Below are positions 9,679 to 58,595 of a stretch of DNA of 64,000 bases, piece after piece (the stretch's first letter is position 1; the number at the start of each line of letters is the position of its first letter). A program made the translations under genes and the position numbers. The stretch lies in NCBI GenBank assembly GCA_963712745.1, contig CAVQJC010000005.1:64001-128000 (forward strand), given 5' to 3'. The notes under the pieces were generated by a model. The model was not told where the DNA came from. It ran no database searches and saw nothing but the letters and a program-made list of their open reading frames with translations. The DNA is from an uncultured Chloroflexia bacterium (GTDB lineage Bacteria > Chloroflexota > Limnocylindria > Limnocylindrales > CSP1-4).

Positions 9679-9753
9679 TGGTCGGGGTGGCGGGGATCGA
9701 ACCCGCGACCTCATGCTCCCAAAGCATGTGCGCTACCTCTGCGCTACACCCCG
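9679..9753 (-). tRNA. tRNA-Pro(TGG), intact, CCA encoded
   Basis: Reverse complement CGGGGTGTAGCGCAGAGGTAGCGCACATGCTTTGGGAGCATGAGGTCGCGGGTTCGATCCCCGCCACCCCGACCA: acceptor CGGGGTG/CACCCCG, D stem GCGC, anticodon stem CATGC/GCATG with loop TTTGGGA, T loop TTCGATC. Confidence 0.97.
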
Positions 9754-9772
9754 ATGGTGTTCGTGCGTGGAT

Positions 9773-9782
9773 AGGGTACACA
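9773..9782 (-). promoter_or_regulatory. Putative extended -10 promoter (TGTG-TACCCT) of tRNA-Pro; also present in most array repeats
   Basis: + strand AGGGTACACA about 20 nt upstream of the tRNA 5' end; the GGGTACAC core recurs in most repeat copies. Confidence 0.55.
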
Positions 9783-9883
9783 GCGCGGCTCGATGACGAC
9801 ACCGATGGGGCCTACACGGCTCGAACCGCGGTATCGTCGGGCAGCCTGCGCGCGATGGAAATGCCGGAGTGGGCAGCCACAGA

Positions 9884-10783
9884 TCAACCTCTGCCGATGA
9901 ACTCGAGGATGTCCGGGCAGAGGCGCTCGTCCGAGATGGCCTGCATATGGTCCTTGCCTTCGTAGACACACAGGGTGCAGTCAGGGATCAGGCTGGCGGT
10001 CTCGTCGAGATATCCCTCGGGGAACATGAAGTCGGCATCGCCGCCGATGAGCAGCACCGGGACACCGATCTCGGGCAGGACGGGTCGCGCGTCGAAGGCC
10101 ACCTCGGCCTCGCCCTCGATCAGCACGTCGCTGGCGAACTCGGGGTGCCCGCCGCGGAACCCAATCCGTCCCATCACCTGGCCGAACAGCCAGGCCAGGC
10201 CGGGAACACGAACCTGCGGGAAGTAGTCTTCGAACATCCCCCTGGCGGCTTCGACCGGTCGACCTTTGCTGAGGCGCTCGGCGAACCGGTAGTCGATGTG
10301 TTTGCCGCGCTCGCTCACCTCGTAGCCAGCCAAGGCGATGACGATGTGGTCGAAGCGATCGGGGTGGCGAGCCGCCAGATAGAAGCCGATGATTCCGCCG
10401 TATGACGTCCCGAGCGCCACGTCCACCTTGCCGCCCAATTCCGACTCGATGAACTCAGCGTAGTCGTCGGCCATGTCGGCGATGGAATGCCCCTGCGGCA
10501 TGCCCTGCTTGCGCATGACGTACCAGATCGTGTAGCCCTCGTCGATGAACCGGCGGAACGGGCGAAGCATCATCCGGAGACTGATACCAGCGGGGGCGAA
10601 GTTGCCCGGACCACCGGGCATGAGCAGGAGCGTCTTCGCTCCCTCGCCCCATCGCGCGTACGCCATGCGACTCTTGGACATGCCGGTGACCGGCCTCGGT
10701 GCTCCCATCCAGACCGCCCGGCGTCCGGCGAGGATGGCCACGCCAGCCACGAAGAACAGTGCGATGAGTCGTCTCATGATCAA
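9884..10783 (-). CDS. Alpha/beta fold hydrolase
   Basis: LLMPGGPG, LGTSYGG nucleophile elbow, IGGDADFMFP, GKDH. Confidence 0.85.
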   Translation of the reverse strand: MIMRRLIALFFVAGVAILAGRRAVWMGAPRPVTGMSKSRMAYARWGEGAKTLLLMPGGPGNFAPAGISLRMMLRPFRRFIDEGYTIWYVMRKQGMPQGHSIADMADDYAEFIESELGGKVDVALGTSYGGIIGFYLAARHPDRFDHIVIALAGYEVSERGKHIDYRFAERLSKGRPVEAARGMFEDYFPQVRVPGLAWLFGQVMGRIGFRGGHPEFASDVLIEGEAEVAFDARPVLPEIGVPVLLIGGDADFMFPEGYLDETASLIPDCTLCVYEGKDHMQAISDERLCPDILEFIGRG

Positions 10784-11628
10784 ACCCCTCTTTCGACTCG
10801 GACGGCGGCTTCCTCGGCTCGCGGCCTGGCGATCGCTCGCACCCGTACCGCCTCGGGCGAGGGAGTGGGCTCCCGACGGAGTTCGGTCGGCAGTTCCTGG
10901 CCGCCGACCCAGGCCTCAATCGTGCGGATGTGCAGGTCGGGTGCCTGTCTTTGCCAGCAGTGGTCAAGGCCGGGCGCGTACCAGGCCTCGCCGTGGGGCA
11001 TGAGCGCGGCAAGGGCCGCGTTGGACGGCCGGTACCAGGCCTCTTGCTCACCTGCGACGAGCAGCGTCGGGTTCGACGTCTCGGCGAGCGGCGGGAGGCG
11101 TTCCATGCTTCCCACGAAGGCACGCCAGAACGCGAGGCGTGACGCATCGCGCAGGTCAGCCTCATCCATGACATTCCCGAATAGCGCTCGGAACCACCGA
11201 GCGTGCTTGAAGGGCAGTGCCGCGGTCAGCACGTACAGCAGAGGAAGCCTCGACGCTCGCGGCCAGTGGATGGGCGTGCCGTCCGCGATCACCCGATCGA
11301 CCAGTTCCGGATGGCGACTCAGCAAGGTAAGCGCGAGTGTCGCCCCCCAGGAGAGTCCCACCACGTGGACCAGCTGCCCTGGGACCCTCGATCCGATGAG
11401 CTCGGCCAGCAGCGCGACGATATGCCCGTTCGATGACGGTGCAAGGTGGTTGCTGCGTCCGAACCCCGGCAGGTCGGGGGCCAGGCAGTGGAAGTGGCTG
11501 AGCTTGGTCATGTGCCCTTGCCAGATGCGCCCGCTCTGACCCATCCCGTGGATGAAGAGGATGTCCGGTGAGCCCGGTGTCCCTGACTCCTCCACGTACA
11601 TGCCACCCAGGTACTTGGGGTGGCTCAT
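10780..11628 (-). CDS. Alpha/beta fold hydrolase
   Basis: FIHGMGQSG, APDLPGFGRS, VGLSWGA, PGLDHCW. Confidence 0.88.
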   Translation of the reverse strand: MSHPKYLGGMYVEESGTPGSPDILFIHGMGQSGRIWQGHMTKLSHFHCLAPDLPGFGRSNHLAPSSNGHIVALLAELIGSRVPGQLVHVVGLSWGATLALTLLSRHPELVDRVIADGTPIHWPRASRLPLLYVLTAALPFKHARWFRALFGNVMDEADLRDASRLAFWRAFVGSMERLPPLAETSNPTLLVAGEQEAWYRPSNAALAALMPHGEAWYAPGLDHCWQRQAPDLHIRTIEAWVGGQELPTELRREPTPSPEAVRVRAIARPRAEEAAVRVERGV

Positions 11629-12137
11629 CTCGTCACCCCGACGGTGTCCTCTTCGGAGTCAGACCGCGGTTCCAGGACCACGACCGCCATCTCGCGCGAC
11701 AGCCTGGCGGCATCACTGTCGATGTCGCACATGAAGCCCACGCCGGACCGCTTGCCGAAGTCGCGCCACAGGGCCCACAGGCGCTTCCGTTCATCGCCCT
11801 CCGCCGCCCGTGCCCGAACGGGATGGATCCCATCTTTCAGCCGGACGACGGCATCGGGGCAAGCCTGGAGGTTGAGCCACCACGCAGGGTCCGCGTCGGA
11901 CCACCCGTTGAACGGGATGATGACGAGGTTCGCGCCATCCTCCAGGTAGCCGATGATCGCGCTCCGCTCCCTGCCCGAGTGGCGACCGACCGTCATGAGA
12001 CACATCTCTCCCCAACGATCGGATCTCGGGCGTGATAATGCGAGGCGCCCTCCCGAGAGCCGATGGACGGTGCGCTGGGCAGTCCCGAACCCACGGAAGA
12101 ACCAGGGAGGAGGCAGGCGCCGACGCTCGCTGCTCAT
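11625..12137 (-). CDS. F420-dependent (deazaflavin) nitroreductase/quinone reductase family protein
   Basis: LMTVGRHSGRER, NGWSDADPAWWLNLQACPDA, ARAAEGDERKRLW; ATG at 12137 overlaps the MTase stop. Confidence 0.82.
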   Translation of the reverse strand: MSSERRRLPPPWFFRGFGTAQRTVHRLSGGRLALSRPRSDRWGEMCLMTVGRHSGRERSAIIGYLEDGANLVIIPFNGWSDADPAWWLNLQACPDAVVRLKDGIHPVRARAAEGDERKRLWALWRDFGKRSGVGFMCDIDSDAARLSREMAVVVLEPRSDSEEDTVGVTR

Positions 12138-12778
12138 GCCGACGCATCTGCCGGCTTCGTGCCTCGGGCGAGCAGCGCCTTCGAGAACACCGGCATCACC
12201 GAGACGGTGACATCGCCGAAGCCGGCCTCCTCCACCAGCCGCTGTGCGGCGTCGTCGGTCCACTGCCACTGGCCCCACTTGTCGACCACGCCCTCGGTCG
12301 CGCCGGCCGGCGCCTCCCCTGCCTCACCCAGGGTGACTGCCAGCCGACCGCCCGGACGCAGGACCCGGTGCATCTCCTTCAGCGCCGCCAGCGGATCGGG
12401 GAAGAACTTCATGGCGTTGACGGAGGTAGCGACGGTGAAGCGGCCGTCGTCCCAGGGCAGATGGTCGGCATCGCCCTCGACGATCTCCGCGGTGCCCGCG
12501 GTGATGCGCTCGGCCAGGCGGCGCCGGGCCGCCTCGAGCTGCAGCGCCGAGGCGTCGAGACCAGCGACGTAGCGCACACCTCCCGCGTGGTCGACGAACA
12601 GCGTCGCCGAGCCACATCCGACGTCGAGCAGCTCATCGTCGGGCTGCAGGTCCAACTCCGCGGCGATCGCCTCGTGGAATGGACGGCTGCTTCTCGGCAT
12701 CAGCCTGACGCCGAGTCGTCCGGGCAGGCCGTGCGGTACTCCGAAGAATGACATCCACCAACTTCGGCGCAGACCCAT
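12134..12778 (-). CDS. Class I SAM-dependent methyltransferase
   Basis: LLDVGCGSA, GLDAS, GDADHLPW, EMHRVLRPGG. Confidence 0.9.
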   Translation of the reverse strand: MGLRRSWWMSFFGVPHGLPGRLGVRLMPRSSRPFHEAIAAELDLQPDDELLDVGCGSATLFVDHAGGVRYVAGLDASALQLEAARRRLAERITAGTAEIVEGDADHLPWDDGRFTVATSVNAMKFFPDPLAALKEMHRVLRPGGRLAVTLGEAGEAPAGATEGVVDKWGQWQWTDDAAQRLVEEAGFGDVTVSVMPVFSKALLARGTKPADASA

Positions 12779-12901
12779 CGCACGTCCCCCCATGCACACG
12801 GGCCGGGTTCGCCAGTGGCTCGGCGCGGTCCTCAGCGGCCATGATCGACGGGCCGCGCGTCCTCGCCTCCCGCTAGGTCCGATTATCCCGTGGCAGCCAA
12901 G
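12779..12901 (-). promoter_or_regulatory. Conserved cassette leader, copy 1 (promoter-like box plus structured 5' UTR)
   Basis: - strand CTTGGC..CACGGGATAAT..GCGGGAGGC..GCGGCC-loop-GGCCGC..GAGCCACTGGCGAACCCGGCCCG..GGGGGACGTGCG-ATG; recurs at about 18630, 24765, 34035, 37472 and 48494. Confidence 0.65.
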
Positions 12902-12965
12902 CCCGATGTCTGGAAGGGGCGGCTAATCGGGCAGCTATGCCGCCATCATCTGGCGTCGACCGGAT

Positions 12966-13176
12966 CACGCTCGCGAACCGCACAATAATCGACGCCTTCG
13001 CCGCTCGGGGCGCCACGCTCACAACCCCCGCAGCCTTCGCCGCTCGAGCCTGAAAGGCTCCCAAAGCATGTGCGCTACCGCTGCGCTACACCCCGACGTG
13101 GTTCGTGCGTGATTAAGGGTACACAGCGCGCCTCGATAGCGACGCCGATGGGCCTACAGCACTCGAACCGCGCGAT
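12966..13176 (-). repeat. tRNA-Pro-derived att-like repeat R1
   Basis: CACGCTCGCGAACCGCAC..GCCTTCGCCGCTC x2..GCTCCCAAAGCATGTGCGCTACCGCTGCGCTACACCCCG (13057-13095, tRNA 5' half)..GGGTACACAG..CCTACAGCACTCGAACCGC. Confidence 0.93.
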
Positions 13177-13312
13177 ATGCCGAACGGGTCAGTCTCGCGC
13201 CATGGGCCTCGATCCGGAGCATGCCAAGGTCGTATCCATGGGCCCCAGGTCGGCGCTGTGCGACTCGAGGCGACGCTGCCGCCAGCCGGACGCTCGTCGT
13301 TCCTCCGCCAGG

Positions 13313-14500: not shown

Positions 14501-14664
14501 CTTCGTGCCTCCCTTGGGCTGTGGTTGAACCTGCTCGACATCGACGGTACCGGGTTTGGCCAGGGTCGACGCGGCAGAGGTTCCCCGGCAGCGTGCAACC
14601 GATGCAGGCAATCGCTACGGTAAGGCCCACCGGCCTCACGTCGCAGCCATACAGAGGTACATGT

Positions 14665-17001
14665 ATGCCAGAGCACGATCCAGTCGTGGATGGATCTACG
14701 CTTCCGTTTCCCAAGCCCAAGTCTGGCAGCGTGGCCGGCCGCACGATGCAAGAGTCCATCTACGACCCGGCGCCCCCACCACAGCGGCTGCCGGCTGATG
14801 CGCCGAACATCCTGATCATCCTGATCGACGATGCCGGGCCAGCGCTGCCGGAAGCGCTGGGCGGTGTCGTGCACACCCCGACGCTGGAGCGAGTCCTCTC
14901 GGAGGGGATCGGGTTCAACCGCTTCCACACGACAGCCATGTGCTCGCCCACCAGGGCCTCGTTGTTGACGGGCCGCAACCACCACCGGGTCGGCAGCGGC
15001 GTGATGACCGAGTTCGCCAACGACTGGGATGGCTACTCGGGCGTCATCCCCCGCAGTAGCGCCCTCCAGGCCGAGGTGCTGCGACAGTACGGCTACGCCA
15101 CCGCCGCGTTCGGCAAGTGGCACAACACCCCTGGGATCGAGACGTCGGCGGCCGGGCCGTTCGACAATTGGCCGGCTCGCATCGGGTTCGAGTACTTCTA
15201 TGGGTTCCTCTCGGGTGAAGCCTCACAGTACGAACCGAACCTCGTCCGCAATACGACCCCGGTCCTGCCGCCGAAGACGCCGGAGGAGGGATATCACCTG
15301 AGCGAGGACCTCGCCGAAGACGCGGTCCGCTGGCTCCAGACGCACAAGGCGGTGCAGCCCGACAAGCCCTTCTACCTGTACTGGGCGAGTGGAGCCGTCC
15401 ATGGCCCCCACCACGTTCACAAGCAGTGGGCTGACAAGTACCGTGGCATGTTCGACGACGGCTGGGACGCCTATCGTGAGCAAGCGTTCGAAGGCGCCAA
15501 GGCGAAGGGCTGGATCCCGGAGACCGCCGAGTTGACGCCCCGGCATCCGACGATGCCGGCGTGGGACGATCTCCCAGAGGACCAGAAGCCGTTCCAGCGC
15601 CGCCTGATGGAAGTGTTCGCCGGCTTCGGCGAGCACGCCGACGTACAGGCGGGCAAGGTCATCGATGAGATCGAACGCCTCGGCTACGGGGATAACACCC
15701 TGGTCGTCTACATCTGGGGTGACAACGGATCATCGGGCGAGGGCCAGCAAGGAACCATCAGCGAGTTGATGGCGGTGAACGGTATCCCCTCCACGGTCGA
15801 GCAGCACATCGAGGCCCTCGACACGCTCGGCGGGCTCGATGTGCTTGGCTCACCGCTCGTCGACAACATGTACCACGCTGGGTGGGCGTGGGCGGGCAGC
15901 GCCCCCTACCAGGGCATGAAGCTGCTCGGATCGCACTTCGGTGGAACCCGGAACCCGATGGCCATCCGATGGCCCGCGAGGATCACACCCGACGCGAGAC
16001 CGCGATCGCAGTTCCACCACTGCAACGACCTCGTGCCCACTATCTACGAGCTGCTTGGCATCACGCCGCCGCAGACCGTGAATGGAGCCCCCCAGGACCA
16101 GATCGATGGGGTGAGCCTGGCCTACACCTTCGATGACCCTGACGCCGAAGGGCGCCTTCGCACGCAGTACTTCGACATCATGGGTAGCCGGGCGATCTAT
16201 CACGACGGCTGGATGGCCTCCGCCATCGGGCCACGGCTGCCCTGGGTCCCAGGTCTCGACCCGAAGATGTTCGAGTGGACACCCGACAAGGACGTCTGGG
16301 AGCTCTACAACCTCGAGGAGGACTGGTCGCAGGCCCATGACCTCGCCGGGGCGATGCCCGAGAAGCTGGCGCAGATGAAGGAGGTCTTCCTCATCGAAGC
16401 GGCCAGGAACAAGGCCCTGCCGATCGGCGGCGGGCTATGGATCCCCTTCCATCCTGAGTTCCGTGCCGCATCGCCGCAGACCGAATGGACCTTCGCAGGC
16501 GACCTCGTTCGCATCCCGGAGCCCGTCGCGCCGGGGCTGGGCAACAGGCCCAACGTCGTCACCATCCTCGCGGACGTGCCCAGCGACGCCACCGGTGTGC
16601 TCTACAAGCTTGGTGCTGGCTCTTCTGGCGTCACGCTGTTCGTCGAGGACGGCCACCTGGTCTACGAGTACAACCTGTTCATCATCCAGCGAACCCAGAT
16701 CCGTTCCGCCACCAAGCTTCCGGTCGGCAAGGTGGAGATCCGAGTGACGACCCTGCCGGTCGAACCGCGCCCCTCGGGTCCCCTGCAGGTGATGCTCGAG
16801 GTCAACGGCGACGCCGTGGGCGAAGGCACCGTCCCGGTCAGCATCCGTACGAGCTTCACGGCCAACGACTGCCTGGACATCGGGCAGGCGCTCGGCTCTC
16901 CAGTCTCGCTCGACTACCGTGACCGGGCACCGTTCAAGTTCAACGGCACGATCGAGCAGGTCCAGGTGAGGTACCTACCACCGGCGCAGCCGTCAGCGTA
17001 G
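14665..17001 (+). CDS. Arylsulfatase (formylglycine-dependent)
   Basis: PNILIILIDDAG, CSPTRASLLTGRNHH, FGKWHN, IWGDNG. Confidence 0.93.
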   Translation: MPEHDPVVDGSTLPFPKPKSGSVAGRTMQESIYDPAPPPQRLPADAPNILIILIDDAGPALPEALGGVVHTPTLERVLSEGIGFNRFHTTAMCSPTRASLLTGRNHHRVGSGVMTEFANDWDGYSGVIPRSSALQAEVLRQYGYATAAFGKWHNTPGIETSAAGPFDNWPARIGFEYFYGFLSGEASQYEPNLVRNTTPVLPPKTPEEGYHLSEDLAEDAVRWLQTHKAVQPDKPFYLYWASGAVHGPHHVHKQWADKYRGMFDDGWDAYREQAFEGAKAKGWIPETAELTPRHPTMPAWDDLPEDQKPFQRRLMEVFAGFGEHADVQAGKVIDEIERLGYGDNTLVVYIWGDNGSSGEGQQGTISELMAVNGIPSTVEQHIEALDTLGGLDVLGSPLVDNMYHAGWAWAGSAPYQGMKLLGSHFGGTRNPMAIRWPARITPDARPRSQFHHCNDLVPTIYELLGITPPQTVNGAPQDQIDGVSLAYTFDDPDAEGRLRTQYFDIMGSRAIYHDGWMASAIGPRLPWVPGLDPKMFEWTPDKDVWELYNLEEDWSQAHDLAGAMPEKLAQMKEVFLIEAARNKALPIGGGLWIPFHPEFRAASPQTEWTFAGDLVRIPEPVAPGLGNRPNVVTILADVPSDATGVLYKLGAGSSGVTLFVEDGHLVYEYNLFIIQRTQIRSATKLPVGKVEIRVTTLPVEPRPSGPLQVMLEVNGDAVGEGTVPVSIRTSFTANDCLDIGQALGSPVSLDYRDRAPFKFNGTIEQVQVRYLPPAQPSA

Positions 17002-17066
17002 CCGAGGTCGTAGCCCGACCGCGTCGAATCGGGCTACAGGAGCAGGCGTGAGTTGCTCAAGGCCGG

Positions 17067-17277
17067 CACGCTCGCGAACCGCACAATAATCGAGGCCTTC
17101 ACCGCTCAGCTCGCCACGCTCGAAGCCCCGGAGCCTTCACCGCAAACCCCTCCTAGGCTCCCAAAGCATGTGCGCTACCGCTGCGCTACACCCCGATGGC
17201 GTCTGTGCACGGATAGGGTACACAGCAGGGCTCGATAGCGACACCAGAGAGCCTACAGCGCTCGAACCGCACAATAA
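17067..17277 (-). repeat. tRNA-Pro-derived att-like repeat R2
   Basis: Full copy; GAACCGCACAATAA present at both ends. Confidence 0.93.
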
Positions 17278-17429
17278 CGGCTGCAGAGCGCAAGTGCTCA
17301 TCCCGCGACTGGGGTGTGACGGGCGTGGTCGCCAGATGCCCTTCCATACCGTCGTGACCAAGCACCATCACAGGCGGACGGGGAACCCGGGTCCTCGGCT
17401 TGGGCCGAGGACCCGATCCGGCAAGTCAG

Positions 17430-18750: not shown

Positions 18751-18828
18751 CCGAGTCGTGGTGGCTCGGATCCACCGCCTTGGTCGGACATCGGGCAGAA
18801 CTCCGGCGCCGAAGACAAGCCCGCAGAT

Positions 18829-19025
18829 CACGCTCGCGAACCGCACAATAATCGAGGCCTTCGCCGCTCTGGCTATCGTGCGTGGAACCCCGGAGCCTTC
18901 ACCGCAAACCCCTCGTAGGCCCCCAAAACATGTGCGCTACCTCTGCGCTACACCCCGACGAGTTCGTGCGTGACTAGGGTACACGGCACTCGTCTGAAGC
19001 GACAGCAGAGGGCCTGCAGCGCTCG
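18829..19025 (-). repeat. tRNA-Pro-derived att-like repeat R3
   Basis: Type-B arm (CCGCAAACCCCTCG); D-loop identical to the native tRNA (CTACCTCTGCGC). Confidence 0.9.
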
Positions 19026-20008
19026 CTGTCTAGTCCCTGTCGCATCGAGATCACGGTCGTTCCCTGGGCATGCCCGTCCGCGACGTGCCCGACGGCGCTC
19101 GCCCCTTCGTCCAGCGTGGATGCCAAGTCGATGACCGGACTGAGCCTGCCGGCCTCCACCAGTTCCGCAAGGGCGATCAAGTCGCTTGCGCGGTAGGCAT
19201 GGACGACGGGTCGAGCCTGCTGACGTACGACCCACGAGGACACGAGCACTCGGATGATCCGCCCCAAGGGCCTGGTCCAGCCGCCGGCAGGCGCTCCGTT
19301 GGACAGGAGGAGCCCGTTGGTGTCGAGGGCGCGCCTGATATCAGACAACGAACGGGTCCCCACGTTGTCGAGGATGAGGTCGTACCGTTGCTCGCCCTGG
19401 GTGAAGTCATCCTGGGTGTAGTCGATCACGTGGTCGGCGCCGATCGATCTCACGAGTTCGAGGTTCCGTGTGCTGCAGACAGCCGTCACTTCAGCCTCGA
19501 ACGCCTTGGCGAGCTGTACCGCGAACGTGCCCACACCGCCGGAGGCACCGTTGATGAGGACTCGCTGACCCGGTTGGACATTCCCAGCGTCGCGCAGAGC
19601 CTGAAGAGCGACCATCGCTGAGACCCCGAGGGCGGCGGCGTATTCGAACGAGGTTGCAGCAGGCTTCGGGGCCAACTTGTCCGCCGATGTCACGACGTAC
19701 TCAGCGAAGGCGCTCTTGCACCAACCGAACACCTGATCGCCCGGCGCGAGCTTCGTCACGTTTGGGCCGACGGCCTCGACCGTGCCCGCGATGTCCGTTC
19801 CCGGGATCCGTGCCTTGGGCCCGCGCAGCCCGTAGATAGGACGGAACAGGTATGGCACCCCCCGGATGCCGTGGACATCGCCAATGTGGATCGATGCGGC
19901 GCGGACGCGGATGAGCACCTCGTCGTCGTCGGGCGTCGGTTGAGGGACCTCGCCGACGCCTAGGACATCCCGCGGTTCTCCGTAGTCCTCCTGGATGAGT
20001 GCCCTCAC
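18974..20008 (-). CDS. NAD(P)-dependent medium-chain alcohol dehydrogenase/quinone reductase
   Basis: GTG start VRALIQEDYGEP, PGTDIAGTVEAVG, VLINGASGGVGTFAVQLAK, GADHVIDY; stop lies inside repeat R3. Confidence 0.88.
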   Translation of the reverse strand: MRALIQEDYGEPRDVLGVGEVPQPTPDDDEVLIRVRAASIHIGDVHGIRGVPYLFRPIYGLRGPKARIPGTDIAGTVEAVGPNVTKLAPGDQVFGWCKSAFAEYVVTSADKLAPKPAATSFEYAAALGVSAMVALQALRDAGNVQPGQRVLINGASGGVGTFAVQLAKAFEAEVTAVCSTRNLELVRSIGADHVIDYTQDDFTQGEQRYDLILDNVGTRSLSDIRRALDTNGLLLSNGAPAGGWTRPLGRIIRVLVSSWVVRQQARPVVHAYRASDLIALAELVEAGRLSPVIDLASTLDEGASAVGHVADGHAQGTTVISMRQGLDSERCRPSAVASDECRVP

Positions 20009-20479: not shown

Positions 20480-20532
20480 AGCCCTGCGTGTGAGGGCGAG
20501 CTCGAGGTGTGGCATGGGGTGCACAACCGAGC

Positions 20533-20745
20533 CACGCTCCCGAACCGCACAATCATCGACGCCTACACCGCTCCGCGCGCCACGCTCAAGACCCCGAAGC
20601 CTTCGCCGCTCGAGCCCGAAAGGCTCCCAAAGCATGTGCGCTGCCGCTGCGCTACACCCCGACGAGGATCGTGCGTGGATAGGGTACGCAGCGCGGCGCT
20701 CAGGCGGTATCCGAGGGTCTACAGCGCTCGAATCGTGCGATGATC
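20533..20745 (-). repeat. tRNA-Pro-derived att-like repeat R4
   Basis: Full copy with GCTCCCAAAGCATGTGCGCTGCCGCTGCGCTACACCCCG. Confidence 0.92.
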
Positions 20746-20849
20746 GTGGCTTCGCCCGAGACCCCGCCTGGGCCCCGAAGGTTGAGCGGTACTTCGACGC
20801 TCACTCGCACATTCAATCTGTTGCCCAGTCGCGACCGCTTTCCCGAGTG

Positions 20850-21379: not shown

Positions 21380-21484
21380 GTCGTACCTCCTGCCCAAGTG
21401 GTCACCGAGGTGGTCACCTTAGCACAGGGGACGAGCGTGCCCAGGACCTTCGCAATTCGTGGAGGCAGGTCCCTGGGCTCGAGC

Positions 21485-21685
21485 CACGCTCCCGAACCGC
21501 ACGATGATCGAGGCCTTCACCGCTCGGCCCGTCACGCTCGGGGCACCGGAGCCTTCACCGCTCGAGCTTGGAAGGCTCCCAAAGCATGTGCGCTGCCGCT
21601 GCACTACACCCCGACGAGGTCCGTACGTAGATAGGGTACACAGCGCGCGTCCGAAGCGACCGCGAAGGGCCTACGGCGCTCGAAC
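21485..21685 (-). repeat. tRNA-Pro-derived att-like repeat R5
   Basis: Full copy. Confidence 0.92.
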
Positions 21686-21717
21686 TCAGCTGTGGCTGGA
21701 GCCTCCGGTGGAGGGCG

Positions 21718-22896: not shown

Positions 22897-22995
22897 CTGG
22901 GTCTCCTTGGGAAGGGCGAATTGCGAGCCGATGATGCCAGACCCCATCCGATGCGGCCATCGATCACGCGACCGCCCTGATGGTCAACGACGTGT

Positions 22996-23153
22996 CGCGC
23001 TCCCGAACCGCACGATGATCGAGGCCTTGGCCGCAAACCCCTCGCAAGCTCCCAAAGCTGTGCGCTAGCGCTGCGCTACACCCCGACGTGGTTCGTGCGT
23101 GACTGGGGTACACGGGAGGGCTCGATGGCGATACCAAGGGGCCTCACAGCGCG
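22996..23153 (-). repeat. tRNA-Pro-derived att-like repeat R6 (internally deleted arm)
   Basis: Only one GCCTT..CCGC unit remains; tRNA half degenerate (AAAGCTGTGCGCTAGCG). Confidence 0.88.
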
Positions 23154-24883: not shown

Positions 24884-24950
24884 ACCATGGTGCGGTCGGA
24901 ACCTATCAGCCGGGCGGCAACGAGTGAGCATCATGCAGGCTGCCACGGAT

Positions 24951-25163
24951 CACGCTCGCGAACCGCACGATGATCGAGGCTTTCGCCGCTTCCCCGGCCA
25001 CGCTCACGCCCCCGGAGCCTTCGCCGCTCGAGCCTAGAAGGCTCCCAAAGTATGTGCGCAACCGCTGCGCTACACCCCGACGAGGTTCGTGCCTGACTAG
25101 GGTACACAGCGGAGCTCGACAGCGACATCTGAAGGCCTGCAGCGCTCGAACCACACGATGATC
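24951..25163 (-). repeat. tRNA-Pro-derived att-like repeat R7
   Basis: Full copy. Confidence 0.92.
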
Positions 25164-25176
25164 GACGGCGGGCGGT

Positions 25177-27575: not shown

Positions 27576-27746
27576 CGGCTCCCCCTGCTCGAAGCGGGTC
27601 GCGAGCGCCCGCACCAGCCGGTGGCGTTCACCGTCCCCGCTGACCTTGATTCTCTCGCGGCCGACAAGCCGGGTGCGCCTGGCTCAGCTGGGCGGGACCG
27701 TTGGGGTGCCGGGCAGTCCGCCGAAGCGACGAAGCGGCCGGCATTT

Positions 27747-27958
27747 CACGCTCGCGAACCGCACGATAATCGAGGCCTTCGCCGCTCCCCCGGCCACGCT
27801 CACGCCCCCGGAGCCTTCGCCGCTCGAGCCTGAAAGGCTCCCAAAGCATGTGCGCTACCGCTGCGCTACACCCCGACGAGGTTCGTGCCTAGAGAGGGTA
27901 CACAGCACGCCCCTATAGCGACACAAAGGGACCCACAGCGCTCGAACCGAACACGATC
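27747..27958 (-). repeat. tRNA-Pro-derived att-like repeat R8
   Basis: Full, well-conserved copy. Confidence 0.93.
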
Positions 27959-28081
27959 TGGTCCACGAACGCTGGGTCGTCATCACTGAACGTTGGCCAC
28001 GCTCTCGTACCGCACAATGATGTGGGTAGCGGCGGCTCGGGGCACCGGGCAGGTCCGCAGAAGCAGCGAGGAGCCGATGCC

Positions 28082-29137: not shown

Positions 29138-29273
29138 GCTGGGCCCGACGGTGCGCACGGGCGATAGCCAACGGCGCCGCACGAACGCGTCTATCGATCG
29201 AGAACGTGTGCGCCCGTCTGGGTTCGCGATCCGGACCGCTGGCGACAACCGGGGCCTCTGCTCGAGGCGTGAC

Positions 29274-39608: not shown

Positions 39609-39609
39609 G

Positions 39610-40327: not shown

Positions 40328-40553
40328 GCTCGTGAACCTCATCGCGTGTCAGGCGGTCCATCGCCCGGAAGCGCTTGATCTGACCTTGGATGCGACGCTG
40401 CTGCGCTTCCAACCGCGAGAACTCGGCGTCATCGTAGGAAAGCGAGCGCAGGTAGGTCGCGACCATGCCACTGACTGATCGGCCCTCCTCCGCGGCTCGG
40501 ATGCGAGCGGCGCGATAGACGTCGTCAGGTACAGAGACCGTGATGTTCTTCAC
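40314..40553 (-). CDS. RHH-type antitoxin (VapB-like)
   Basis: GTG start KNITVSVPDDVYRAARIRAAEEGRSVSGMV; overlaps the toxin start. Confidence 0.85.
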   Translation of the reverse strand: MKNITVSVPDDVYRAARIRAAEEGRSVSGMVATYLRSLSYDDAEFSRLEAQQRRIQGQIKRFRAMDRLTRDEVHERALR

Positions 40554-40592
40554 CGTGTCACAGTAACGCATTCTCACAGTATCTGTGAGCTG

Positions 40593-40766
40593 ATGGCAGT
40601 GAGCCCAAGGTCCTGGATGTGGGAGCTTCGCCACACAGTGACGGCCTGTGACGCGGCATTCCTGGCACTCGCGGAGGCGCTCGATGCACCGCTGGTCACG
40701 TGCGATGCCCGACTCGCTCGCGCGCCCGGTCACGCAGCTTCGGTAGAGGTGTTCCCTCGCGGTTGA
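40593..40766 (+). pseudogene. C-terminal remnant of a second VapC/PIN toxin
   Basis: WELRHTVTACDAAFLALAEALDAPLVTCDARLARAPGH. Confidence 0.7.
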
Positions 40767-40819
40767 TCAGGTGCCGTTGCTGGAGGGACTCCCGAAGCAC
40801 TCTGCGCGAGCGTCTTGGA

Positions 40820-41023
40820 GCCCGCAAACCACACGATGATCGGGGCCTTCACCGCTCGGCCCATCACGCTCGCATGGCCGGGAGCTTCACCGCGAACCCC
40901 GCGTGGGCTCCCAAAGCATGTGCGCTACCGCTGCGCTACACCCCGACGAGTCCGTGCGTGCCTAGGCGCAGCGAGGCTCGACGGCGACACAGATGGGCCG
41001 ACACTGCTCGAATCGCACGATAA
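40820..41023 (-). repeat. att-like repeat R14
   Basis: Type-B arm; intact tRNA half; degenerate promoter box. Confidence 0.88.
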
Positions 41024-41084
41024 CCCCGAAGCAGCGGCGAACCGACTGGGGGTGCTCGCCCGCCGGTTCGCGCATCCAGACCGA

Positions 41085-42853: not shown

Positions 42854-42912
42854 CCTCGCGCTCGATTCGTTGCGGCGATTGTCACGTCGTCTGAACCGAT
42901 CTCATCCGCCAA

Positions 42913-43101
42913 GCGTCTGAACCGCACGATGATCGAGGCTTTCGCCGCTCGGTCCCTCGTGCTCAGCGGTTCGCTGCCTTCACCCGCTCGGGCCTCGCGG
43001 GCTCCCCAAGCATGTGCGCTCCCGCTGCGCTACACCCCGACGAGTTCGTGCGTGGATTGGGTAGACGGGGCAGCTCTCGGAGGGAGAGGGCCTACAGCGC
43101 T
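42913..43101 (-). repeat. att-like repeat R15
   Basis: Degenerate copy with GCTCCCCAAGCATGTGCGCTCCCGCTGCGCTACACCCCG. Confidence 0.85.
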
Positions 43102-43111
43102 TCTGCCCGGG

Positions 43112-44458
43112 TCAGCCGAGGCGTATTACCGGTGGCACCACCCAGGTGCCGTCCAGCGCCGCCGGCTCCGGCCAGTACATGCGGCACGCCAGGTAGAAGG
43201 GCCCGTCAGGGGTCGGCAGCCAGTTGGCTCGCTCGACCGGGTCGGTGGGCGCTTGGCGCTGCATGGTGATCGTGAGCGCGCCCTCGGCGTCGCGAACGAG
43301 TCCCTCGGTGAGCGCGTTGATGAGATAGCGGTCGATCGGGTTCTCGACGAGGTATCCGGCAGTGCCGTCGTAGCTGGTGTCGTACATCGTCACCGACCAG
43401 AACGCCCGCACCGGCGGCTCGGTCTCGAGCCGCAGCTGGTACTTGCTGTTGCCGTCGAACGGGTTGCCGTCAGCATCGACCCGCGCCATGGGGTAGGAGG
43501 CCTCGATCCGGTCGTTGCCGCCCCAGCCCACCATCGACTCGGCGGCGCGGCGGAGGTAGTCGCCGGCATAGGCCTCGCGGTTGCCGAAGGCGTCCATCGA
43601 CATCCATCCGTTGATGGTGGCCCCGAGCTGGCTGGAGGCCTTGGAGAGCTCATCGCGAGCCTCGGCCACGCCGCTCGCGAGGGCACTTCGGATGTCATCC
43701 GGGAGTGCCTCGACGTCCGCAGGGAGGCCGGGGCCGATGCCGATCCGGGCGAAGCGGGCAAACATCTCCACCTCGTCGGGGTGGGGAGGCTGGCACAGGG
43801 GCAGCAGGGAGTTGAGGTAACGCACGAAGCGCTCATCGCGCGACGTCTCGTCGTCCCAGTGGGGCCAGTCGTAGGCTGGCAGATCAGGCGCCGGATTCCC
43901 GGTGAATACCGCGTAGGGCTCCAGACGATACTGCTTCATGATCCCCGCGAGCGCCGGGGCGTCTCCGGGGCCGAGCAGTTGGGAGCGGCCGATGAGGAAC
44001 ACCAAGTCGGTCTCGAACTGGTGGGAGCCGCTGAAGCCTTCGGGCACCTCACCCTGCCAACTCGGACCGGCGAGGAAGTAGGTGCCGGCCTCCACCCCCG
44101 TCGACCGGCTGCCGACGTAGAGGTCGTTCTGTCCATAGAGGTCCTCGAACTGCATCACGTAGTAGCGGTCGGTCACTGCGGGTACCGATAGCACCAGCGG
44201 GCCAGCGCGAAGATCGAGCAGGGAGAATGAATAGGGGGTATCCGCGTTCGGCGTGATGACATCGCGGAAGCGATGGTCGAGCGTCACAGCCTCACCGTAC
44301 GGCCCCGCGTTGGCCGGGCCGCGATACGCGGGCGAGGCCGACCGGAGGAATGTGGCATACCCATATCGGTACCCCATCATCATGGGGAAGGCGTAGATGT
44401 ACGCCTCCCTGGCGATGGCGGCCACTTCGGCGAGGGCCAGGGAAGGGTCGATGCGCAT
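43112..44458 (-). CDS. DUF1254/DUF1214 domain protein
   Basis: EAYIYAFPM, VITPNADTPYS, DRYYVMQF, PPVRAFWSVTMYD, NWLPTPDGPF. Confidence 0.88.
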   Translation of the reverse strand: MRIDPSLALAEVAAIAREAYIYAFPMMMGYRYGYATFLRSASPAYRGPANAGPYGEAVTLDHRFRDVITPNADTPYSFSLLDLRAGPLVLSVPAVTDRYYVMQFEDLYGQNDLYVGSRSTGVEAGTYFLAGPSWQGEVPEGFSGSHQFETDLVFLIGRSQLLGPGDAPALAGIMKQYRLEPYAVFTGNPAPDLPAYDWPHWDDETSRDERFVRYLNSLLPLCQPPHPDEVEMFARFARIGIGPGLPADVEALPDDIRSALASGVAEARDELSKASSQLGATINGWMSMDAFGNREAYAGDYLRRAAESMVGWGGNDRIEASYPMARVDADGNPFDGNSKYQLRLETEPPVRAFWSVTMYDTSYDGTAGYLVENPIDRYLINALTEGLVRDAEGALTITMQRQAPTDPVERANWLPTPDGPFYLACRMYWPEPAALDGTWVVPPVIRLG

Positions 44459-44677
44459 GGGTGGCTCCTAGGTTGGTCGGGTGACCCCCTCGTCGGCGGG
44501 TCCCGCTGTTCGTCTCGACGTTGTCACTCATGCTAACCGGGGTCGACCGGATCACTGGTGTGCGCCGACCGTGAAGTCCGTCCGGTCGGCACTGCCGCTG
44601 TGGACCAGCCGCGCAGGGTGTGCATTCGCAAGGCCTGGAACTGGCATCGACTGCGCTGCAAGCTCCCGTCCGCCAGA

Positions 44678-44878
44678 CACGCTCTCGAACCGCACGATGG
44701 TCGAGGCCGTCGCCGCTCGGCCGGTCGTGCTCAGAGCCCCGGAGCCGTCGCCGCTCGAGCCTGAAAGGCTCCCAAAGCATGAGCGCTACCGCTGCGCGAC
44801 GCCCCGACGAGGTCATGCGTGACCGGGGCACACGGCACGCTTCGATAGCGACGCGGAAGGGGCCGACCGCGCTCGAAT
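44678..44878 (-). repeat. att-like repeat R16
   Basis: Degenerate full-length copy. Confidence 0.85.
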
Positions 44879-45072
44879 GGCATGTTCACGGGCGATGGCT
44901 TCCGCGGAGCGACCAGCTGCGCAAACCGCAGGTGGCAGGAGTGTCGCCTGCCCCTGGGCAAGAAGCGTGGAGACCGAGACCTTGGCCATGGCGTCACCCA
45001 CCCGCCGGCGCGGACGCAGACCATGGAGATCGGTCACCGAAAGCGCATGGTGCGGGCCGCCGTCGGTAGTTA

Positions 45073-46070: not shown

Positions 46071-46190
46071 TTCACCGCGCCACGCTCCGAAGGCCGGGGC
46101 CATCGCCGCAAACCCCTCGTGGGCTCCCGAAGCATGAGCGCTACCGCTGCGCTACACCCCGACGGAGTTCGTTCGTGCGAACCGTACAAT
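46071..46190 (-). repeat. att-like repeat R17 (collapsed)
   Basis: CCGCAAACCCCTCGTGGGCTCCCGAAGCATGAGCGCTACCGCTGCGCTACACCCCG..GAACCGTACAAT. Confidence 0.82.
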
Positions 46191-49928: not shown

Positions 49929-49953
49929 CACGCTCCTGAACCGCACGACGATC
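49929..49953 (-). repeat. Terminal motif fragment of the att-like repeat
   Basis: CACGCTCCTGAACCGCACGACGATC. Confidence 0.6.
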
Positions 49954-56906: not shown

Positions 56907-56977
56907 CTCGTGCGTGGATAGGGTACACAGCGCGCTTCGATAGCAGCAGATGCGAGGCCTACAGCGTTCGAACCGCG
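56906..56977 (-). repeat. Right (promoter) half of the att-like repeat
   Basis: TCGTGCGTGGATAGGGTACACAGCGCG..GGCCTACAGCGTTCGAACCGC. Confidence 0.85.
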
Positions 56978-57234
56978 CAACCATGACCGATCGCCTTAGG
57001 TCGATGGGGGCCAGCGTGCGGTCTACGGGTCTCCATCGAGGAAGCCGGCCCCTGACCACGGCCAGCTGATCAGGCTCATCAAGCTGCGGGGAGTCACCAG
57101 AATCGGTGATCACTTCGAATCGGGCTTCCGCTCAGCCGCCAGCTGGGCCATGGCGTCACCCACCCGCCGGCGCGGACGCAGACCATGGAGACCGGTCACC
57201 GAAAGCGCATGGTGCGGGCCGCCGTCGGTAGTTA

Positions 57235-57516
57235 TCAGCCTGGCTCGGCCCAGGCCTCCTCAGCCTCGGTCTCCATCTTCTTGAGGCGCGTGTAGTAGTC
57301 CGGGAATTCCTTGAGATGTGCGAGCGCGATCTTGCCCGTCACGATCGGATCGCTGCCGCTCACGTTGGTCTGCGAGTCGTGCGTTCCGTGCTCCAGTTCG
57401 ACATCGAGGCCCTCTCGGAACTGATCCACGTCGAATGGGCTGGTGTCCCAGTCGATACCGATCTCAGTCCCGATCCGACGGGCTTCTTCGGCGGTGAAGT
57501 GTTCGTCCGTTGTCAT
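57235..57516 (-). CDS. DUF5661-like small protein (duplicate of 45073-45354)
   Basis: Protein differs by one residue. Confidence 0.8.
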   Translation of the reverse strand: MTTDEHFTAEEARRIGTEIGIDWDTSPFDVDQFREGLDVELEHGTHDSQTNVSGSDPIVTGKIALAHLKEFPDYYTRLKKMETEAEEAWAEPG

Positions 57517-57742
57517 CGATCCTCCTCAAGAGCCAGCAGGACGCGTGACTCACTCGAGCAGCGTACTACCCGGGTATCCGTGCTCGGGCCGACGGGGGTG
57601 CGAGTCCCCCTGGATGAGGGTCGGCTTTGTCTCGCGCCTAGAATCGAAGGAGGGCCGGACAGCACTCGCAAGACGCGGCTCACGGTGGCGAGGACGAGAG
57701 TCCTGGTCTCGGGAACGGACCGGCCTCGGGGGAGGTGGAGCG

Positions 57743-58444
57743 GTGAGGACGATCATCAAGGTCTTGGCGCTGCTCGGAGTCGGCATACTGCTCTGGTTCC
57801 GCGGGCGCGATTGGGCAGGCTACGTAGGCGATCACGTCGGCGTCGGGCGCAAGACGACCGGACCCATCGCGCGGGCCCTCTACAGACACGACCCGTGGCA
57901 CCGCACGGCATACCCCATGGCCCTCGAGAAGCTGGCGCTGGCCCCGGATGACACGTACCTCGACATCGCTTGTGGAGGGGGGACGCTGCTCTCACTGGCG
58001 CTCGAAACGGTGGACCGGGCGGCGGGCCTCGATCACAGCCCCGCCGCCGTCGAGGTAGCGCGGGAAACGAACGCCGCGGCGCTCGAGGCGGGTCGGCTCG
58101 AACTGCGGGAAGGCGACGCCGCGGACCTGCCGTGGGATGACGGCTCGTTCGACGCCGTCTCCAATCTCAACACCATCCACACGATGCAGGAGCCACGGCC
58201 TCTGCTACGCGAGGCCCATCGGGTCCTGAAGCCCGGTGGTCGGTTCCTGCTCATCACCCAGTCGGCCGAGTCGCTCGAAGGCCCGATGTGGGGATGGATG
58301 CGACGCTTGCTGGTGCTCCACGGCGACAGCGAACTGGCATCGATGCTGCGGGATGTCGGATTCTCGGAGGTGGAGGCCTACTCACCGGACGGGGATCGCC
58401 AGGTCGGCTACGGCATCAAGGCGACCGTCGAGGCCAGCGCGTAA
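57743..58444 (+). CDS. Membrane-anchored class I methyltransferase
   Basis: GTG start after GGAGG; N-terminal TM, YLDIACGGG, GDAADLPW, RVLKPGG; paralog of the 26211 C-terminal domain. Confidence 0.85.
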   Translation: MRTIIKVLALLGVGILLWFRGRDWAGYVGDHVGVGRKTTGPIARALYRHDPWHRTAYPMALEKLALAPDDTYLDIACGGGTLLSLALETVDRAAGLDHSPAAVEVARETNAAALEAGRLELREGDAADLPWDDGSFDAVSNLNTIHTMQEPRPLLREAHRVLKPGGRFLLITQSAESLEGPMWGWMRRLLVLHGDSELASMLRDVGFSEVEAYSPDGDRQVGYGIKATVEASA

Positions 58445-58515
58445 GCCCGCGGAGACAAGCCTCTTGGGCGCCGCCGCTGCGACGAGTTCCCCGCCAGGGG
58501 CGCACTGCGCGACCG

Positions 58516-58595
58516 ACGCTCCTCGATCGCACGATGATCGAGGCCTTCACCGCTTCGGCCGTCACGCTCGGAAGGCGGCACCTTCGCCACTCGAC
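58516..58595 (-). repeat. Distal, degenerate arm of the att-like repeat (array end)
   Basis: ACGCTCCTCGATCGCACGATGATCGAGGCCTTCACCGCT..GTCACGCTCG..CCTTCGCCACTCGA; no tRNA half. Confidence 0.75.

Follow-up and report, generated by a model that had tools for sequence, protein, structure and literature searches.

How does one intact tRNA gene come to stand at the head of a long row of small gene cassettes, separated by copies of one half of that same tRNA? The question is raised by a stretch of 64,000 nucleotides (nt), hereafter the window (C5:64001-128000, contig CAVQJC010000005.1), from the metagenome bin G000 of an uncultured Chloroflexota bacterium (4.22 Mb in 20 contigs, 68% G+C, completeness 84.6%, contamination 5%). 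The sole tRNA detected by ARAGORN in the window, a tRNA-Pro(TGG) gene at 9679..9753 on the minus strand (71.5 bits with the Rfam tRNA model), is intact and anchors an array of cassettes delimited by repeats of ~230 nt, a layout which an initial annotation, made from the letters only, had likened to an integron. With a probability of roughly 60%, we read the array as a genomic island at tRNA-Pro(TGG) that has grown by repeated site-specific integration, i.e. tandem accretion, through a Xer-like integrase, and mostly of cassettes that lack an integrase themselves.

The repeats as tRNA-derived junctions

Read along the minus strand, a repeat consists of an outer motif (M_R), the tRNA upstream region, the tRNA 5' half, the anticodon loop, a short hairpin, the P' arm and a second outer motif (M_L). 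M_R spans ~25 nt and is followed by ~50 nt that correspond to what lies upstream of the intact tRNA, with a conserved block abutting the tRNA start. The tRNA portion then extends from the first bases through the anticodon loop and two bases more, where it gives way to a foreign arm of ~100 nt in all, beginning with the short, variable hairpin. The P' arm itself, ~60 nt, holds two direct copies of GAGCGGYGAAGGC, and M_L shares a 16-nt core with M_R, the latter being far more degenerate. Sequence of the same type as the promoter-side (P) arm of the repeats also precedes the intact tRNA at 9754..9838 (minus strand), covering the upstream (promoter) region and M_R (nhmmer match 9713-9838, profile columns 21-145, and alignment). 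The overlap of the intact gene with the repeats is limited to 9715-9803, that is, to the promoter region and the 5' half. The proposal of the initial annotation that the repeats are junctions resembling attachment (att) sites is thereby borne out, as they contain the tRNA 5' half.

Within the repeats, conserved blocks alternate with variable spacers, the latter coming in a small number of discrete variants that are combined in many ways. Across genera, the GAGCGGYGAAGG motif is preserved together with the outer motif, and the promoter region differs. Conservation of motif blocks between genera with varying spacers points to putative protein-binding sites. A ~10-nt segment in the middle of the P' arm comes in two forms, TGAGCGTGG-like and CCACGCACG-like, each being approximately the reverse complement of the other, and both are found across genomes (exemplified by 18868-18890 and 24990-25010 of the window). 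An Rfam scan of the repeats returned no family besides tRNA. When 29 repeats were folded to a consensus, compensatory changes were seen in 0 of 31 predicted pairs, and no hairpin extended over the whole site. We hence rejected a structured RNA gene or riboswitch, and take the repeats to be sites in DNA.

A profile built from 15 copies was used to search the genome with nhmmer and gave 21 matches in the window, all on the minus strand (E 1e-7 to 1e-68), one of which is the intact tRNA with its upstream region (9713-9838). Repeat-finding placed same-strand families, of 9-17 copies each, in the interval from 12.9 to 46.2 kb, and outliers at 56.9 kb and 58.5 kb. Furthermore, at least 32 of the first 36 bases of the tRNA are matched at 16 places on C5, the intact gene included, and the outer-motif core has 30 regex matches in the window, on one strand only.

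Full repeats, all on the minus strand, were assigned from the nhmmer matches at 12958..13191 (repeat 1, E=7e-67, with the anatomy taken from alignments), 17056..17294 (repeat 2, E=3e-62), 18819..19033 (repeat 3, E=4.5e-59), 20525..20752 (repeat 4, E=6e-63), 21478..21702 (repeat 5, E=5e-65), 24939..25174 (repeat 7, E=1e-66, the query of our genome searches), 27737..27962 (repeat 8), 29269..29500 (repeat 9, E=8e-65), 34211..34449 (repeat 11, E=8e-68), 39443..39676 (repeat 13, E=4e-51), 40815..41034 (repeat 14, E=9e-51), 42903..43127 (repeat 15, E=1e-48) and 44669..44900 (repeat 16, E=5e-58). Three others on the same strand are altered: repeat 6 (22988..23152, E=9e-32) is shortened, with columns 39-241 compressed into 165 nt, repeat 10 (30325..30546, E=2e-49) has a diverged upstream part, and repeat 12 (37648..37881, E=3e-35) retains an intact P' arm and M_L, the tRNA half and upstream region being replaced according to the segment identities. 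Partial minus-strand copies comprise M_R and the upstream region only at 31139..31226 (columns 13-97, E=9e-8) and at 56907..56996 (columns 10-98, E=3e-10), columns 76-194 at 46072..46190 (E=2e-23), and the P' arm with M_L at 58512..58599 (columns 148-236, E=3e-14), 165 nt before fabF. Lone outer motifs are seen after repeat 8 (27989-28021, by inspection, with a regex match at 28006) and, as an M_L-type remnant, at 49929..49952 on the minus strand (regex match at 49937, 2 mismatches); a degenerate one was read by eye at 55378. All 17 starts that the initial annotation gave for full repeats coincide with profile matches within ~10 nt, with the copy at 46072 proving partial and that at 37648 being devoid of the tRNA half. 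Among its five partial copies, those at 31139, 56907 and 58512 stand as profile matches, whereas 49929 and 55378 are outer-motif remnants only. The row of repeats that it described is confirmed, and lies far outside what chance would give.

Over 18 arrays in 17 genomes, successive repeats are a median of 2264 nt apart (n=64, interquartile range 1396-3715), and 49 of the 64 intervals hold one to three genes, three hold four, 11 hold five to ten and one holds none, as counted with a crude GC3-based gene caller that also supplied the gene orientations given below.

Strict confinement of the repeat to the tRNA-Pro locus is contradicted by eight of the 29 matches across G000, mostly partial, on C8, C10, C16, C17 and C20. 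On the other hand, a dispersed repeat similar to miniature inverted-repeat transposable elements (MITEs) or short interspersed elements (SINEs), which the initial annotation had named as the finding that would overturn it, does not agree with 21 of 29 matches in one array on one strand, or with the arrays of relatives being located at the same tRNA. The copies away from tRNA-Pro are at C8:96154-98262, C17:74720-74914, C20:31184-32203, C16:14936-15058, C17:5374-5490 and C10:7254-7302 in G000, and at C12:142058-147614 in the relative G022. Some of them form mini-arrays of two repeats with 1-5 genes between, and those on C8 are situated just past a set of tRNA-Val(GAC) 5' halves, near the contig end. 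They could be translocated pieces of the array, secondary sites or strain variants binned together.

Variable arrays in related genomes

For comparison we used 49 genomes of the same genus (g1), G000 included, with one genome per species. A repeat match at E<=1e-25 was obtained in 17 of the 48 others, nearly all of them assemblies of few contigs; failure to see the repeat in fragmented assemblies is the expected outcome if repeats stay unassembled. Regions from 18 other genomes of the genus were examined, 13 of them with at least two repeats, and the arrays range from 1 to ~10 repeats. Every region with an intact tRNA is anchored on tRNA-Pro(TGG), on the same strand and with a syntenic left flank. 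Beyond the genus, the 5' half was searched in 300 genomes of the class, and several same-strand copies were detected in three other genera of the family, a result that applies to this family, as the tRNA of other families did not fit the search pattern. Here G301 has four 5'-half copies 1.6-2.4 kb apart and G109 has two, while G265, G354 and G136 have two each, 14-28 kb apart. The repeats of these genera possess the same P' arm and M_L as those of the genus g1, and unlike promoter regions. Scanning metagenomes for the junction of anticodon loop and hairpin yielded 14 short contigs with pieces of arrays, of which none is circular and none includes a tRNA, the longest one being without an integrase. 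Viral contigs searched for the outer motif gave 0 matches, and a 17-base motif proved too unspecific in the genome collection (115 matches, mostly chance-like). In this genome and its relatives, a search for the repeat, as the initial annotation had suggested, shows the array recurring at the same tRNA.

Array content moves between species. The 6-kb core flank is 72-79% identical between species (85-89% for the closest pairs), compared to 88-99.7% nucleotide identity for shared cassettes. For instance, the hydrolase-methyltransferase cassette of the window at 34512..37492 is 90% identical over 3.5 kb to one in G031 (core 75%), and its PIN cassette is 95% identical to that of G009 (core 76%) and 93% to that of G029, the core flanks of G009 and G029 being 76-78%. 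A cassette with a 102-aa (amino acid) gene is 94-97% identical among five genomes, and three further cassette pairs reach 98.3%, 98.7% and 99.7%. Since each species is represented by one genome, such identities indicate transfer between species. The order differs as well: according to protein clustering, a two-gene cassette resembling a toxin-antitoxin system is first in G021, fourth in G031 and fifth in G000, the sulfatase cassette is second in G000 and approximately eighth in G021, and the hydrolase-methyltransferase cassette is twelfth in G000 and second in G031. Loss alone is insufficient to explain this, because it cannot invert relative order. The array is, as judged from these comparisons, a variable island whose cassettes have been transferred between species, congruent with the region varying cassette by cassette as initially proposed, with content and order differing between species and cassettes being closer than the core flank.

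An integrase family at the same tRNA gene

Which enzyme could be responsible? The initial description of the array as integrase-less holds, as no PF00589 match is present in the window, and a six-frame PF00589 search of G000 gave four places, two on C4 and the others on C12 and C17, with none on C5. The sole tyrosine recombinases common to all 10 array genomes checked are a syntenic Xer-like pair ~40 kb apart.

In contrast to these, G265, G354 and G136 each have a PF00589 gene inside the insert, at most ~500 nt from the intact tRNA-Pro. The G265 open reading frame (ORF) encodes 327 aa with Phage_int_SAM and Phage_integrase domains. It obtains 159-163 bits on the XerC and XerD models, and because these scores are far below the model cut-offs of 330-335, we consider the protein Xer-like rather than XerC or XerD. 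Its neighbours are a Replic_Relax protein (PF13814) next to the integrase, then a channel, an MFS transporter and a LuxR/STAND regulator; a PF13814 search of G000 gave no match, and the control genomes were likewise without one. G008 encodes an intact homologue, 312 aa and 67% identical, lying 120 nt from the tRNA-Pro 5' end in divergent orientation, in a 6-kb insert that terminates at its far end in a repeat with a remnant of the tRNA half, the P' arm and M_L. Taken together, the family measures 312-327 aa in the four relatives and is placed ~100 nt 5' of tRNA-Pro, divergent from the tRNA, in inserts of 6 kb (G008), 14 kb (G265), 24 kb (G136) and 28 kb (G354) that each end in a repeat of the same type. 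A candidate for the co-occurring recombinase that the initial annotation had proposed to look for is at hand, at the same tRNA and with the same junction anatomy in four relatives.

The two junctions of G265 have only the 38-nt 5' half in common, the sequences on both sides being unrelated. This bounds the att core to the tRNA 5' half, and shows that the element brought a tRNA promoter of its own. In the promoter arm of the integrase-bearing elements a motif ending in GAGCGGTGAAGG takes the place of M_R, and the same motif is repeated in the P' arm. Homologues of the integrase at six loci (L190-L195, 51-67% identity) are all located ~100 nt from a tRNA 5' end and divergent from it, one at Pro(TGG), one at Ala(GGC) and four at Arg(TCG), with L191-L195 being the Ala and the four Arg cases. 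As all six located homologues are on the 5' side of a tRNA, the family uses this uncommon mode systematically.

Other candidates were considered. A 586-aa tyrosine recombinase of G000 (C12:6671-8431) was rejected as the array enzyme, being found in 0 of the 48 other genomes of the genus in a stricter first-pass search; it combines a C-terminal Phage_integrase domain with a long N-terminal region of unknown family, and is near no repeat. Nor was there support for the small zinc-ribbon protein or other conserved genes of the left flank as recombinases, and a search for a dif-like site resembling the outer motif gave nothing usable.

A possible route of integration

How could such an integrase give rise to the array? 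The att site of an element would have two arms that meet at the anticodon loop, the P arm, copied from the promoter region and 5' half of the tRNA, and the ~100-nt P' arm. Recombination of a presumed circular intermediate inside the shared 38-nt 5' half, with crossover in the anticodon loop, would set the promoter and 5' half of the element before the resident 3' half, so that the tRNA would stay intact. The displaced old promoter and 5' half would join the P' arm of the element, forming what we observe as the ~230-nt repeat, and every new arrival would move the older cassettes further from the tRNA. As recombinase we propose the Xer-like tyrosine integrase family, encoded by autonomous relatives ~100 nt 5' of the tRNA. 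The integrase-less cassettes, to which all those in the window belong, would either depend on the integrase in trans or now be immobile.

Traces of exchange were sought by aligning 85 repeats to the profile and comparing cargo-sharing pairs segment by segment. In the pair G013/G014 (cargo 99.7% identical), the sequences agree from the cargo up to column 148, over M_R, the promoter region and the tRNA half, apart from two differences, and the P' arm beyond has 12 differing positions. G022 and G066 (98.3%) share cargo on the other side; there identity spans the cargo, M_L and P' up to column 170, and the hairpin and promoter region differ. G067 and the intact tRNA of G021 (98.7%) share the promoter region. 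In these three most similar pairs (98.3-99.7%), identity hence runs from the cargo into the adjoining arm and ends in the zone of tRNA half, anticodon and hairpin, as predicted by an att crossover in the tRNA 5' half with each arm keeping its own cargo.

Less similar pairs behave differently. Among 16 promoter-side pairs with at least 93% cargo identity, the promoter region is linked to the cargo in only two, both of them among the three best pairs above (1.00 and 0.94). M_R reaches 0.82-0.96 in the remaining 14, compared to a background of 0.69, and only this outer motif travels with the cargo. For other-side pairs, the P' arm amounts to 0.82-0.98 (background 0.74) in 8 of 11 that could be scored. 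Repeat interiors do not cluster by genome, the nearest neighbour being from the same genome in 7 of 38 cases with 8 expected, and no pair exceeds 92%. We thus rejected concerted evolution of repeats within a genome, and homogenisation within an array is not the cause of the unlinked promoter regions. Further exchange must occur inside the repeats, often at the outer motif, through a second site-specific reaction or through homologous recombination in conserved blocks. Of 'empty' hybrid junctions there is one independent case, from a search pattern that was too loose.

Several observations weigh against tandem accretion by this integrase. No integrase was detected (PF00589) in or near the arrays of the 10 genomes checked, G000 included; G009 (90% complete) and G065 (62% complete) carry arrays, yet have no tyrosine recombinase besides the Xer pair, and a homologue of the cognate integrase was not found at E<=1e-20 in G000, which is 84.6% complete. 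The integrase has no separate arm-binding domain although the site displays repeated arm-like motifs. Circular or free cassettes were not found in the short assembled contigs of public runs or in the 14 metagenome contigs; the former held 0.1-0.3 of the sampled words, with some joints between repeats that had additional letters and were of low likeness. In the three best pairs, the switch is located within the longest invariant block. Homologous recombination would also prefer this block, and these pairs are therefore no proof of site-specific crossover. Finally, the promoter region (U) is at 0.58-0.83 in the other 14 of 16 promoter-side pairs, compared to a background of 0.64, and a pure crossover in the anticodon loop does not predict such unlinked promoter regions.

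Tandem accretion could be taken one step further. The array might then be a working gene-capture platform, parallel to integrons and independently evolved, in which integrase-less cassettes, forming a large pool and each with a complete tRNA-derived att site, circulate across species of this Chloroflexota family and are docked at tRNA-Pro and other tRNAs by the Xer-like integrase, supplied in trans from rare autonomous elements, and in which the outer motifs serve as a second exchange site where cargo is swapped between att modules. We put this forward tentatively, as a possibility that we judge more apt to fail than to hold.

Alternative explanations

Did the cassettes rather arrive as complete integrase-bearing elements that later lost the integrase and replication genes, leaving the array as a graveyard of decayed elements? 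The first cassette of G034 has an integrase-type promoter arm and 91 nt matching the G008 element, and nothing further; these 91 nt cover the intergenic region and, of the integrase gene, only its first ~58 nt, a clear case of such decay. Moreover, decay followed by accretion is the standard model for cis-mobilizable elements (CIMEs), as set out in the accessible text of PMC5704250. However, tblastn with the G008 integrase (E<=1e-3) returned no trace in 22 of 26 array regions, the window included, with the four matches being the intact genes. Conservation in dozens of repeats also ends exactly at the outer motif, with unrelated cargo and no integrase-like sequence beyond, and the cassette-type promoter arm is a distinct and abundant sequence type unlike that of the integrase-bearing elements. 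Because of these three observations, which are indirect evidence, we favour cassettes that travel without an integrase, and regard general decay as unlikely.

The unlinked promoter regions also invite the idea of a true two-site capture platform, in which cargo is exchanged mainly at the ~28-nt M_R/M_L motifs, found in direct orientation on both sides of every cargo, by a site-specific enzyme (the host Xer pair or the integrase above), and the tRNA-half modules form an old and largely static scaffold. Indeed, in 14 of 16 promoter-side pairs and in several other-side pairs, high identity stops at the outer motifs or slightly inward of them, the unclustered interiors, none above 92% identity, would fit an old scaffold with young cargo, the 30 matches of the motif core in the window are all on one strand, lone outer-motif remnants recur, and homologous recombination should prefer the invariant 48-nt tRNA block over shorter motifs. 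Yet the three most recent transfers switch in the zone of tRNA half and hairpin, M_R is much more degenerate than M_L, 'empty' hybrids amount to the single independent junction, and no enzyme is linked to the outer motifs, which resemble the arm motif of the integrase-bearing elements and may simply mark the outer limit of att. We consider this explanation improbable.

Growth and reshuffling, after one or a few founding integrations, through homologous recombination between repeats and segmental duplication, with no dedicated recombinase today, is very unlikely. It would agree with the paralogous methyltransferase and hydrolase cassettes within the array (repeat families D9-D15; Pfam), with two cassette ends that are 92-93% identical within G000, with most array genomes being without integrases and with the repeats being a mosaic of discrete variants. 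Nevertheless, cargo is mostly unrelated between cassettes, repeats are not homogenised within a genome, cassettes cross species at up to 99.7% identity, and motif blocks are kept across genera with varying spacers, pointing to protein-binding sites.

Lastly, a chimeric joining of strain variants at the repeat during assembly or binning is hardly credible: G000 is a metagenome bin (84.6% complete, 5% contamination) in which two contigs have duplicate tRNA sets, and public contigs are too short to bridge the repeats, leaving cassette adjacency in G000 as given by this assembly, but the same architecture recurs in 18 other genomes of the genus, five genomes of three other genera and 14 independent metagenome contigs.

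Relation to known systems

Returning to tandem accretion as the preferred explanation, how does the array compare with described systems? The integron analogy does not hold in detail, and we rejected an integron as such: the array has no adjacent intI, no attI, no common promoter, no co-orientation of genes (p=0.37, see below) and no attC-like folding, the last as judged from the consensus fold of 29 repeats, with no attC-specific model. There are clear similarities to a superintegron, namely small cassettes, mostly of a single function, that form a long one-directional array with a recombination site at the boundary of each, content that is highly variable between relatives, a toxin-antitoxin cassette in the array and a recombinase of the Xer-like branch. 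In contrast, the head of the array here is without integrase, attI and common promoter, its genes are not co-oriented, and the site is a ~230-nt tRNA-derived junction without attC-like folding, with a tRNA gene as the place of insertion.

The initial annotation knew of no described system with this architecture. Comparable are, however, tandem accretion with CIMEs (PMC5704250) and the tycheposons (bioRxiv 10.1101/2020.12.28.424599), as far as the accessible text of these sources goes. In the former, streptococcal and other islands are established cases of accretion at a single att site, where integrase-less CIMEs retain attL and attR (PMC5704250, accessible text). Common to our array and the ICESt1-related elements described there are site-specific integration at one tRNA gene, att-flanked integrase-less units and newcomers placed beside residents. 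Congruently, direct repeats of a tRNA part flank the units of our array, with the intact tRNA at one end; an autonomous integrase is found in G008, G265, G354 and G136 only, and not in the window or G000. The differences are considerable: up to ~20 units of 1-4 kb lie in a row here rather than two or three large ones, the 5' half and promoter are duplicated rather than the 3' end, no conjugation genes are seen, the junctions retain ~230 nt with conserved arms, and the array spans a whole family of uncultured Chloroflexota.

Tycheposon islands are described, in the accessible text of 10.1101/2020.12.28.424599, at seven tRNA or tmRNA genes, tRNA-Pro(TGG) included. Partial tRNAs there separate tandem elements and are also scattered, newcomers push older elements inward, and most islands are without an integrase-bearing element. 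The likeness to these Prochlorococcus islands, i.e. tRNA-adjacent location, tandem elements, partial tRNAs and inward displacement, is one of described layout. Tycheposons have a deep-branching tyrosine recombinase and replication modules as hallmarks; of the elements here, that of G265 has the Replic_Relax gene (PF13814) next to its integrase. The Prochlorococcus islands belong to another phylum, the integrase here is Xer-like, and that text does not describe a regular run of complete att junctions with small integrase-less cassettes.

Arrays arising from re-use of one site have been noted for tyrosine-recombinase elements, and 5'-side recombination at tRNAs is called 'considerably less frequent' than 3'-side recombination (PMC6563490, accessible text). 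As with other 5'-targeting elements, the promoter-proximal tRNA part is replaced here, the promoter would be supplied by the element, and the integrase gene is on the 5' side of the tRNA. Elements that integrate through the 5' part of a tRNA gene were reportedly described by Zhao and Williams in 2002, with archaeal cases following later. Arrays of the present type are not mentioned in the accessible text of PMC6563490. More broadly, in our search of the open-access literature we met no account of small integrase-less cassettes in a long, regular row with complete junctions of tRNA 5' halves, and none for Limnocylindria. Most likely, the array resembles tandem accretion and tycheposon islands more than an integron, as an unusually extreme form rather than a new class.

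If the preferred explanation is correct, the site acts as a gene-collecting dock of about twenty small packets that are swapped among related species. Recombinase-less cassettes of 1-4 kb, twenty deep and exchanged across species, would represent gene shuffling on the scale of integrons outside integrons, in an uncultured, abundant lineage of soil and sediment; an ordinary Xer-like integrase, together with a tRNA-derived site, would drive it. It would furthermore supply many examples, within one family, of the rare 'reversed' tRNA targeting, where promoter and 5' half are replaced by the element, and a concrete pair of enzyme and site that can be tested.

Cargo of the array

Pfam annotation of 40 array ORFs revealed alpha/beta hydrolases, paralogous S-adenosylmethionine (SAM) methyltransferases, a sulfatase, two beta-lactamase-fold proteins and zinc and short-chain dehydrogenases among the enzymes. 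Other products are DUF389, YecM and DUF1254/DUF1214 proteins, a pair of PIN and ribbon-helix-helix proteins, CobW, a ferredoxin-domain protein, a helix-turn-helix-cupin regulator, a cupredoxin and a phosphoenolpyruvate-utilising protein. No recombinase is among these 40 ORFs, and by its predicted domains the cargo is one of ordinary accessory enzymes and small systems.

The first cassette (9884..12799, minus strand) comprises two alpha/beta hydrolases and a SAM methyltransferase, and the second (14521..17001, plus strand) the sulfatase, which protein clusters also place in cassettes of G021 and G009 at other array positions. The cassette at 34512..37492 (minus strand; Pfam and blastn) combines a hydrolase/ATC-hydrolase fusion with a methyltransferase. 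A PIN toxin and ribbon-helix-helix antitoxin make up the cassette at 39911..40733 (minus strand; Pfam and blastn), and another small cassette of two genes, at 20850-21397, is likewise widely shared. Long cassette arrays typically contain stabilising toxin-antitoxin cassettes.

Four cassettes hold paralogous hydrolase and methyltransferase sets (10780-12799, 23203-24764, 31717-34055 and 34512-37492; 62-93% nucleotide identity), the hydrolase and methyltransferase being fused into one 586-aa ORF in one of them. They show duplication and divergence within the array, besides acquisition.

The window also has six matches to riboswitch variants c-di-GMP-II-GAG/c-di-GMP-II-GCG above the gathering score (52-59 bits), all on the minus strand, at 12792-12879, 18644-18728, 24775-24861, 34049-34135, 37486-37572 and 48507-48590. 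They are located directly 5' of cassette genes, four of which are the paralogous SAM methyltransferases, one DUF4886-like and one for the ferredoxin-domain protein.

Might the repeats be obligatory promoters of the cargo? In the window, 21 genes are oriented one way and 10 the other, an excess that is not general across arrays: over 18 arrays, 97 genes are on the tRNA strand compared to 84 on the other (binomial p=0.37). As there is no strand bias over all arrays, we rejected this role.

Other half-tRNA sets and genome context

Half-tRNA copies in G000 (blastn-short, at least 32 of 36 nt) are associated with six tRNAs besides Pro, seven in all. Copies of 3' halves belong to Thr(CGT) (13, of which 11 on C5), Gly(TCC) (7) and Asn(GTT) (4), and copies of 5' halves to Val(GAC) (8), Lys(TTT) (3) and Arg(TCG) (2). 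The six sets are located at C5:295905-362254, C8:73133-94037, C20:653861-660458, C1:101367-218383, C17:368411-374074 and C20:76-11226. Since six further tRNAs have extra copies, the phenomenon is a general one in this organism. With half-tRNA copies at seven tRNAs and one accessory integrase, G000 could serve as a case for how flexible islands are kept up when a recombinase is rarely resident.

C1 and C2 of G000 display an identical tRNA series in the same order (Ala-TGC, Ile-GAT, Ser-GGA, Ser-CGA, Arg-GCG, Ser-GCT, Ser-TGA and Thr-CGT), a doubling which suggests either two strain variants in the bin or a large duplication.

The core genes of the left flank of the array encode a ResB-like protein, a Cys/Met pyridoxal phosphate enzyme, a GGDEF protein, the small zinc-ribbon protein, DUF2568 and SRPBCC, the GGDEF protein (6455-8299) being a conserved neighbour of tRNA-Pro. 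On the right, fabF (Pfam) starts at 58764, and the variable region probably extends beyond the last repeat, through 58600-64000 and on to ~148.5 kb of C5. The gene at 62641-63999 has a 79% homologue in the first cassette of G066, and the first right-flank synteny with G031 begins ~20 kb past the end of the window.

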